The notes under the pieces: generated by a model | What the model was told of the DNA's origin: nothing | The model's database searches: none | Seen by the model: the letters and a program-made list of their open reading frames with translations, nothing else | From: a virus | Lineage: Duplodnaviria > Caudoviricetes | DNA: 64,000 nucleotides | Reading direction: 5' to 3' (one strand) | Virus record (IMG/VR): IMGVR_UViG_3300017700_000931 | Coordinates: 1-64,000 of that record | Part shown: in pieces, positions 26,876 through 31,780 of the stretch | How the letters are laid out: each line of letters begins with the position of its first letter | How positions within the stretch are numbered: position 1 is the first letter of the stretch | Position numbers and translations under genes: made by a program

Positions 26876-26985
26876 AAAATAAGAATACAAAAACATTAAT
26901 TTATTATAGCTTGGTTCAAGCGCATCGCCATAATCACTTTTCCACTCTTGAACTGAACAGTGAGTTGTTTGTTTTTATATTCTCG

Positions 26986-27058
26986 TGGTACGGGCTGGAA
27001 TCGAACCAGCGACACAAGGATTTTCAGTCCTTTGCTCTACCAACTGAGCTACCGCACC
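26986..27058 (-). tRNA. tRNA-Phe(GAA)
   Basis: AAGGA CU-GAA-AA UCCUU. Confidence 0.92.
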
Positions 27059-31373: not shown

Positions 31374-31387
31374 AATTTATTCTTTTG

Positions 31388-31459
31388 TGTGACCTCCCAG
31401 ATTCGAACTGGGCTTTCTTGGGCTTCAACCAAACGAAGGACCCCTGCTTCCAAGGTCAC
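31388..31459 (-). tRNA. tRNA-Phe(GAA)
   Basis: UUUGG UU-GAA-GC CCAAG. Confidence 0.8.
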
Positions 31460-31467
31460 ATATTTTG

Positions 31468-31540
31468 TGAGGGCAATCAGTAGCGACCTGATATCTCTGG
31501 TTTTTCAGACCAGCGCATAGACCATCTTTGCTATACCCCC
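31468..31540 (-). tRNA. tRNA-Phe(GAA), atypical T loop
   Basis: CUGGU CU-GAA-AA ACCAG; T loop GUCGCUA. Confidence 0.8.
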
Positions 31541-31554
31541 GAAATGTCATAAAC

Positions 31555-31587
31555 AAAAAAAGCTCGACCAAATTTGGTCGAGCTTTT
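31555..31587 (-). terminator. attenuator terminator, operon 2
   Basis: AGCUCGACCA/UGGUCGAGCU plus U tract. Confidence 0.9.
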
Positions 31588-31615
31588 ATCAGTGTTTTGT
31601 TTAAATACTTAAACG

Positions 31616-31705
31616 TTAACTTATGACAATACTTGACCACCCTAGGCGACAATCCGCCTCGGCTGCTTCAAAAGCAAAATCAAATATGTTGTTAACTGTT
31701 TTCAT
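31616..31705 (-). CDS. attenuator leader peptide 2 (F/D/A/E sensor)
   Basis: MKTVNNIFDFAFEAAEADCRLGWSSIVIS. Confidence 0.85.
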   Translation of the reverse strand: MKTVNNIFDFAFEAAEADCRLGWSSIVIS

Positions 31706-31750
31706 TGTATTATAAATATATTGTTTTTTATCAAAATCTTAATTACACTG

Positions 31751-31780
31751 CAAATATACGAAAGAATTTTTAATTAGCAA
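31751..31780 (-). promoter_or_regulatory. Bacteroidota-type promoter, operon 2
   Basis: TTGC ... TATATTTG. Confidence 0.8.

Follow-up and report, generated by a model that had tools for sequence, protein, structure and literature searches.

A probable leader-peptide attenuator in front of a Phe/Glu/Asp/Ala tRNA operon in a large phage genome, and its three sister cassettes

In the phage genome described here, the tRNA genes for Phe, Glu, Asp and Ala are preceded by a cassette (cassette B) that is probably a ribosome-mediated attenuator, a reading to which we give a probability of about 0.8. Cassette B would raise transcription of these phage tRNA genes when the decoding of Phe, Asp, Ala or Glu codons is slow. 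A leader-peptide attenuator at this position had been proposed in a first-pass annotation of the DNA, and our analyses support that proposal, since the promoter, the short ORF with its codon run, the 2:3 and 3:4 pairings and a candidate 1:2 pairing are all present. Further backing comes from the set of four paralogous cassettes in the genome, from conserved orthologs in related phages and from covariation between the antiterminator and terminator arms. What appears to be new is an attenuation switch wired to tRNA genes, in which the molecule that is sensed is also the product.

Genome and source

The phage genome is a single contig of 362,532 bp with a G+C content of ~32%, and the window that we analyzed is its first 64 kb. 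ARAGORN identified 57 tRNA genes on the contig, 53 of them within the window and all 53 on the minus strand. The two ends of the contig share an identical overlap of 123 bp (genome positions 1-123 and 362410-362532), which indicates either a terminal repeat or a circular assembly.

Across the whole genome, an SD-like 4-mer precedes only 7% of 252 long ORFs, the start contexts of the phage genes are A-rich, and the sequence TAnnTTTG is found upstream of 27% of long ORFs versus an expectation of ~10%. Starts without an SD, A-rich contexts and TAnnTTTG promoters are Bacteroidota-type signals. These promoter and initiation signals point indirectly to a Bacteroidota host. Searches of the cassettes against the INPHARED collection by megablast and blastn returned no match, and a tblastn search of INPHARED with the neighboring kinase-like protein returned distant matches only, which were uninformative as to the relatives of this phage.

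The window also has a match to the bacterial small SRP (4.5S) RNA family of Rfam at 24795-24890 on the minus strand (40.9 bits; gathering score, 40). The match would represent an SRP RNA encoded by the phage, situated between tRNA operons.

Promoter, leader ORF and codon run of cassette B

The upstream part of cassette B comprises the following features:

31780-31751, minus strand: putative promoter, composed of TTGCTA (31780-31775) and TATATTTG (31758-31751), having the form TTG-N19-TAnnTTTG and lying behind an A-rich stretch
31705-31616, minus strand: leader ORF of 29 codons, ATG to TAA
31684-31652, minus strand: putative regulatory run FDFAFEAAEAD, codons 8-18 in the ORF translation

The promoter sequence of cassette B, TTGCTAATT-N12-G-TATATTTG, was also selected by a sigma-70 scan. 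Its form (TTG, a spacer of ~19 nt and TAnnTTTG) corresponds to that of the Bacteroidota-type promoter (-33 TTTG/-7 TAnnTTTG). The motif TTGCTAATT-N12-GTATNTTTG occurs in exactly four copies in the 362-kb genome, one before each leader cassette. The sequence 5' to the leader start codon is A-rich and lacks a Shine-Dalgarno motif, and in this the leader ORF resembles the other genes of the phage.

Translation of the leader gives FDFAFEAAEAD, in agreement with the earlier report of 11 consecutive Phe, Asp, Ala or Glu codons at codons 8-18. The codons are TTT GAT TTT GCT TTT GAA GCA GCC GAG GCG GAT, so that all four Ala codons (GCT, GCA, GCC, and GCG) and both Glu codons (GAA and GAG) are represented, as had also been stated. 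Codons 2-7, which precede the run, are all outside this set (K, T, V, N, N, and I). Among the 725,060 codon positions of the six-frame translation of the whole genome, a run of at least 11 residues drawn from F, E, D and A is expected 3.6e-4 times and was observed once, and this sole instance stands directly upstream of the F/E/D/A tRNA operon. Taken by itself, the codon diversity of the run is not significant (8 distinct codons versus 6.6 expected, P ~0.19), and relatives do not keep the full set of Ala and Glu codons.

Predicted RNA structures

The RNA elements predicted for the transcript of cassette B are as follows:

31682-31664, minus strand: segment 1, candidate anti-antiterminator arm, within the first seven codons of the run; pairs with segment 2
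31662-31641, minus strand: hairpin P, a small stem-loop located within the ORF, at the 3' end of the codon run
31639-31624, minus strand: segment 2, candidate antiterminator 5' arm, UGGUCAAGU-A-UUGUCA, in leader codons 23-28
31591-31575, minus strand: segment 3, candidate antiterminator 3' arm, UGAUAA-AA-GCUCGACCA; overlaps the terminator 5' arm
31587-31555, minus strand: intrinsic terminator (segments 3:4), with a 13-bp stem, a 4-nt loop and seven U

On the basis of these predictions the leader of cassette B is of the classical four-segment layout (1:2, 2:3, 3:4). The terminator has a folding energy of -20.1 kcal/mol (z -7.2), was also selected by a terminator scan, and is separated from the first tRNA gene by a gap of 15 nt. 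The pairing that had been proposed between segment 2 and the terminator arm was found as described: UGGUCAAGU (31639-31631) and GCUCGACCA (31583-31575) pair at 8 of 9 positions, one of them a G-U pair, and the helix is extended by UUGUCA (31629-31624) with UGAUAA (31591-31586). Minimum-energy folding of 31642-31575 yields this two-helix 2:3 hairpin (-14.8 kcal/mol, z -2.5), and the stop codon of the leader lies 5 nt past segment 2, inside the antiterminator loop.

The competing 1:2 stem, which encloses hairpin P, is obtained in the fold of 31705-31620 (-21.9 kcal/mol, z -2.4). RNAalifold of 20 orthologs gives it as a 7-bp helix whose columns are invariant, meaning that it displays no covariation, and it overlaps coding constraints. 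In transcripts ended at the terminator 5' arm, folding favors hairpin P together with 2:3 over 1:2. Hairpin P itself is well preserved in five orthologs, with 92% of cells paired and three pairs changed on both sides; its score was reached by only 3 of 500 shuffles, and slid controls scored much lower. Based on its position, hairpin P may be a pause or spacer hairpin.

The tRNA operon behind cassette B

Genes that would be controlled by cassette B, and those within the operon that depart from canonical tRNAs, are these:

31540-30312, minus strand: putatively regulated tRNA operon, from ARAGORN and Rfam tRNA matches with alignments
31263-31191, minus strand: tRNA-like gene previously read as a second tRNA-Glu; weak partial Rfam match (35 bits), loop CUUUCAA, anticodon UUC
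31087-31018, minus strand: tRNA-like gene with a 5-nt anticodon loop and a full cloverleaf; called Gln by ARAGORN
30653-30584, minus strand: tRNA-like gene with a 6-nt anticodon loop and a full cloverleaf

The order of the operon is Phe(GAA) twice, Glu(UUC), the non-canonical UUC tRNA-like gene, the tRNA-like gene with the 5-nt loop, Asp(GUC) twice, the tRNA-like gene with the 6-nt loop, and Ala(UGC) twice. Two genes each for Phe, Glu, Asp and Ala had been assigned at first; the pairs for Phe, Asp and Ala are canonical, but there is only one canonical tRNA-Glu (31350-31278), as the supposed second copy has a 14-nt extra arm and an acceptor stem that is not aligned. The three aberrant tRNA-like genes might be decoys or non-decoding tRNAs. 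Their identities have no counterpart in the leader, a point which counts against the attenuator reading.

More generally, most anticodons of this phage are represented by two or three genes whose mutual identity is only 56-72% (for example, 31467-31540 versus 31387-31459, minus strand), and several copies of the Thr, Asn, Ile, Cys and Met tRNAs are 85-89 nt long, an unusual length for those identities. The phage thus seems to possess two divergent tRNA series.

Four sister cassettes in one genome

Behind each of the four promoter copies come, in turn, a leader ORF (29-31 codons), a terminator and the genes of a tRNA operon (4/4 cassettes):

16232-15995, minus strand: cassette A, with leader 16153-16058, run TYQPKQYTQGGKP and terminator; then Pro, Gln, Tyr, Thr, Gly and Lys tRNAs
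31780-31555, minus strand: cassette B, with leader 31705-31616 and run FDFAFEAAEAD; then Phe, Glu, Asp and Ala tRNAs
33645-33430, minus strand: cassette C, with V/L/C-rich leader 33581-33489 and terminator; then Cys, Val and Leu tRNAs
58544-58327, minus strand: cassette D, with leader 58477-58385, run MHIHMISISNWRRNSS and terminator; then a 59-aa ORF, followed by His, Trp, Ser, Asn, Arg, Ile and Met tRNAs

The amino-acid sets of the four operons sum to all 20. In the genome translated in all six frames, the runs of leaders A, B and D each occur only once, and the correspondence between leader and operon is specific: in a 4 x 4 leader-by-operon table, the diagonal holds 13, 11, 12 and 15 of 17 core residues, versus 0-4 off the diagonal. 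Tables for three relatives with full operons are also strongly diagonal. Relative to the expectation from genome usage, the runs of A and C are written in rarer and more varied codons (rarity P of 0.0006 and 0.0002, respectively), which fits with leaders that sample several isoacceptors. Three of the four leader types have the N-terminal motif M-x-T-x-x-N-I in common.

Several other features were observed around these cassettes. The 59-aa ORF (58308-58129, minus strand), situated between the terminator of cassette D and the first tRNA gene, is kept in 14 IMG/VR loci, 11 of which have a D-type leader just upstream. The only INPHARED match of the 59-aa protein, in a 635-kb uncultured phage, proved irrelevant, as that locus has neither a leader nor tRNA genes. 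A fifth copy of the promoter, diverged and weaker (TTGCCAATT..., 27202-27175, minus strand), precedes a lone third tRNA-Phe (26985-27058) and has behind it a 24-codon ORF and no terminator. The Cys/Val/Leu operon includes an 87-nt tRNA with anticodon CAU and a long variable arm (32389-32303, minus strand), which may be a Met, an Ile2 or some other tRNA, and leader C has no internal Met codon.

Conservation and covariation in relatives

Relatives were identified in IMG/VR by a promoter-pattern scan, a search with the small ORF that follows cassette D and a DNA-pattern scan for the B leader. They form a clade of large phage contigs of up to 368.5 kb, and in five distinct genomes the same four leader types stand before the same tRNA sets. 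As the partition of amino acids is the same throughout the clade, the relatives document conservation and do not constitute independent matches of leader to operon.

The B-type leader was found in 24 IMG/VR contigs (20 distinct sequences), and its ATG and stop codon are kept. The run in these orthologs has the form NIFDFAF-x-AAE-x-D, with the terminator located 47-55 nt past the stop. Wherever the locus sequence of the 24 contigs extends far enough, Phe, Glu, Asp and Ala tRNAs are found behind the B leader; five loci show a single tRNA only, which is Phe, or Asp in the cut contig of G006. Many of the substitutions in the run remain within the F/D/A/E set, with D replaced by E, A replaced by E or D, and the Glu codon GAA replaced by the Phe codon TTT; the last of these requires three base changes and is chemically radical, yet in-set. 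Changes to residues outside the set are few: S or N in place of A, I in place of F, and one T. The B operons of some relatives have extra tRNAs (for example, His, Asn or Ser) that are not mirrored in their leaders. The D-type leader is likewise kept, at 11 of 14 related loci, with the conserved peptide INIHMISISNWRRNS.

Pairing between the terminator 5' arm and the 3' region of the leader ORF is also general, as it is present in the minimum-energy fold of the partial transcript for all four cassettes of this genome and for 17 of 17 cassettes from five genomes. For single cassettes, this pairing is weakly better than in shuffled sequences (P 0.01-0.33). The terminator arms within the B family have diverged (GCUCGACCA, GCCUUCC, GUCUGAC, GGUUGGC, GCCGACCAC, and CCCUCGA), and segment 2 has changed along with them. 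RNAalifold on a MAFFT alignment missed the terminator because indels misaligned that region, and covariation was therefore assessed by an alignment-free test in which duplex energies were computed for each segment 2 with the segment 3 of its own genome and of other genomes, and compared by permutation.

For 18 distinct pairs of the B family, cognate duplexes have a mean energy of -14.0 kcal/mol versus -11.2 kcal/mol for non-cognate duplexes, an advantage reached in 0 of 20,000 permutations (P<5e-5). The D family behaves similarly (cognate, -15.8 kcal/mol; non-cognate, -11.6 kcal/mol; P=1e-4). In several B orthologs, the outer antiterminator helix takes in no more than 3-6 nt of the terminator arm, together with loop bases. 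The anatomy of the cassette, its conservation and this covariation are direct results of sequence comparison and computation.

One relative, G001, has lost part of two leaders. Its A and D cassettes are missing the 5' portion of the leader together with the ATG, and retain the promoter, segment 2 and the terminator. In both (L007, 1500-1680, and L009, 1500-1680), an identical 41-nt promoter block is fused to mid-leader sequence, the first part of the run is absent, and in-frame TAA and TAG codons lie just upstream. Control by the ribosome must therefore be dispensable or have been lost in these two cassettes. The same promoter type occurs elsewhere in G001, before a sequence that, read by eye, starts like the 5' end of tmRNA (L010, ~1565-1900), and before another stretch (L011). 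As a separate observation, the F/E/D/A operon of G001 includes a tRNA with a UUA anticodon, of the ochre-suppressor type (L015, 2269-2341), and tRNAs with CUA anticodons are present in G002 and G003.

Proposed mechanism and alternative explanations

From the anatomy of cassette B we infer translation of the leader, stalling and read-through, and propose the following sequence of events. Transcription would start at the TTG-N19-TAnnTTTG promoter, and a ribosome would initiate on the 29-codon leader. If Phe, Asp, Ala and Glu codons were decoded quickly, the ribosome would proceed to cover segment 2, allowing the 3:4 terminator to form and leaving the tRNA genes off. When charged cognate tRNAs are scarce, the ribosome would be expected to stall in the 11-codon run, masking segment 1 and leaving segment 2 free, and the free segment 2 would pair with segment 3 as the antiterminator, so that the polymerase could enter the Phe, Glu, Asp and Ala tRNA genes. 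On a leader without a ribosome, 1:2 would form and the terminator would act. The three sister cassettes would serve the other 16 amino acids in the same way, making the tRNA complement of the phage a set of four self-sensing regulons.

Because the products of the operon would themselves relieve the stall, such a switch would exert negative feedback on tRNA supply. Extended to all four cassettes, the virus would possess a closed-loop, four-channel sensor of decoding capacity, its four regulons being activated by stalling and shut off by their own tRNAs; we judge the odds to be modestly in favor of this larger proposal. If it is true, phage translation could be kept running independently of the host tRNA pool, which might drop through degradation of host tRNAs or through tRNA-cleaving defense nucleases. 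Since attenuators sense charged tRNA, the natural trigger (tRNA loss, nuclease attack or starvation) is not set by the sequence.

This last point bears on the best of the alternative explanations, which is that the attenuator operates as proposed but that its signal is amino-acid starvation or a general slowdown of translation, with output tied to host nutrition. Classical attenuators such as those of trp and his do answer to the level of charged tRNA, whatever the cause, and a stall at codons 2-7 of leader B, outside the set, would also free segment 2. However, additional tRNA provides no relief from a shortage of amino acids, and the exact partition of 20 amino acids over four leaders and operons is sensible only with product feedback of each operon on its own leader. 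We consider nutritional control unlikely.

A considerably less probable explanation is that the small ORFs encode functional, conserved micropeptides, that the terminator is a fixed, leaky insulator and that the match to the tRNAs is incidental. The peptides are indeed well conserved (24 contigs have NIFDFAF..AAE.D, and the D family has INIHMISISNWRRNS), and the M-x-T-x-x-N-I N-terminus is found in three of the four types. Against this explanation, each of the four peptides matches the amino-acid set of its own operon, three of the runs occur nowhere else in the genome, and radical replacements are tolerated provided they remain in-set. In addition, segment 2 co-varies with the terminator arm, which is not required of a free peptide.

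Slightly less probable again is a switch that operates without the ribosome, in which the run would bind tRNA anticodons in a T-box-like manner, or a protein, and so set the choice between terminator and antiterminator. Such a switch would account for a series of cognate triplets adjoining an antiterminator/terminator pair. However, a scan of the whole window at Rfam gathering thresholds returned only tRNAs and the one SRP RNA, with no match to the T-box (RF00230) or any other riboswitch family, and on this basis a T-box or other riboswitch assignment was rejected. Neither a specifier loop nor the architecture of a T-box bulge is present, the run is in frame within an ORF whose ATG and stop are kept in 24 contigs, and 11-18 contiguous in-frame codons are suited to a ribosome and not to a single tRNA.

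Equally improbable is the absence of any regulation, with the cassettes being relics of duplication and the tRNAs being produced by constitutive read-through or from internal promoters: the two truncated leaders of G001 and the weaker fifth promoter copy, which would drive a lone tRNA-Phe without a terminator, are in its favor, but the ORF, run, terminator and co-varying antiterminator are kept across divergent genomes, and a terminator with a 13-bp stem and U7 at a distance of 15 nt from the first tRNA would impose a cost if it were unregulated.

If ribosome-mediated attenuation is the correct reading, it would represent direct, virus-encoded feedback on tRNA supply and explain how large phages dose their sets of tRNAs. 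It would also offer a route by which a phage could respond to depletion of host tRNAs or to anticodon-nuclease defenses. The four cassettes would be natural, compact and codon-specific sensors of decoding speed that together address all 20 amino acids and could be tested with reporters, and metagenomes contain a cassette family wide enough to support comparative analyses.

Comparison with known systems

For nearly fifty years, leader-peptide attenuation has been a textbook mechanism of amino-acid operon control, and tRNA genes are usually treated as constitutive or controlled by growth rate. To our knowledge, all described leader-peptide attenuators govern genes for amino-acid biosynthesis, transport or aminoacyl-tRNA synthetases, and our full-text literature searches turned up no description of tRNA genes, phage or cellular, under the control of a leader peptide. 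The genes behind cassette B are tRNA genes only, and in this the cassette differs from the described members of the class. Assignment of cassette B to the attenuators is supported at the level of sequence by each of the expected features other than the type of gene regulated, the 1:2 arm being a candidate without covariation.

Blocks of phage-encoded tRNAs are also found in T4, T5 and large Vibrio and Caulobacter phages. Such clusters are thought to sustain late translation or to stand in for host tRNAs that degradation or anticodon nucleases have removed. The clusters of these phages have been described as using ordinary phage promoters.

The T-box resembles cassette B in that it senses the status of tRNA, involves a choice between terminator and antiterminator, and is located upstream of translation-related genes. 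It differs in binding uncharged tRNA through a specifier codon and a bulge, with no ribosome, whereas the codons of the phage cassette are in an ORF. A closer relation is to the pheST attenuator of Escherichia coli (pheM leader), which acts on a translation-machinery component and is responsive to the level of charged tRNA-Phe. The two systems would have in common leader-peptide attenuation of translation machinery; however, pheST attenuation is cellular, concerns a single amino acid and controls an aminoacyl-tRNA synthetase, while the phage cassette would control tRNA genes.

The proteobacterial attenuators of amino-acid operons (trpL, hisL, pheL, and leuL, and the multivalent thr and ilvGMEDA leaders) are the nearest counterparts in design. 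As predicted for cassette B, they have a short translated leader with a codon run, alternative 1:2, 2:3 and 3:4 pairings and a terminator, with a stall leading to read-through, and in the ilv and thr systems one leader senses several amino acids, as those of the phage cassettes would. They differ from the phage cassette in that they regulate biosynthetic enzymes, whereas the phage cassette would regulate tRNA genes and its output would be the sensed molecule. Unlike them, the phage cassette has a Bacteroidota-like promoter and SD-less start and an extra conserved hairpin, P, within the ORF. The phage system is, moreover, viral, and four paralogous cassettes split the 20 amino acids among them.
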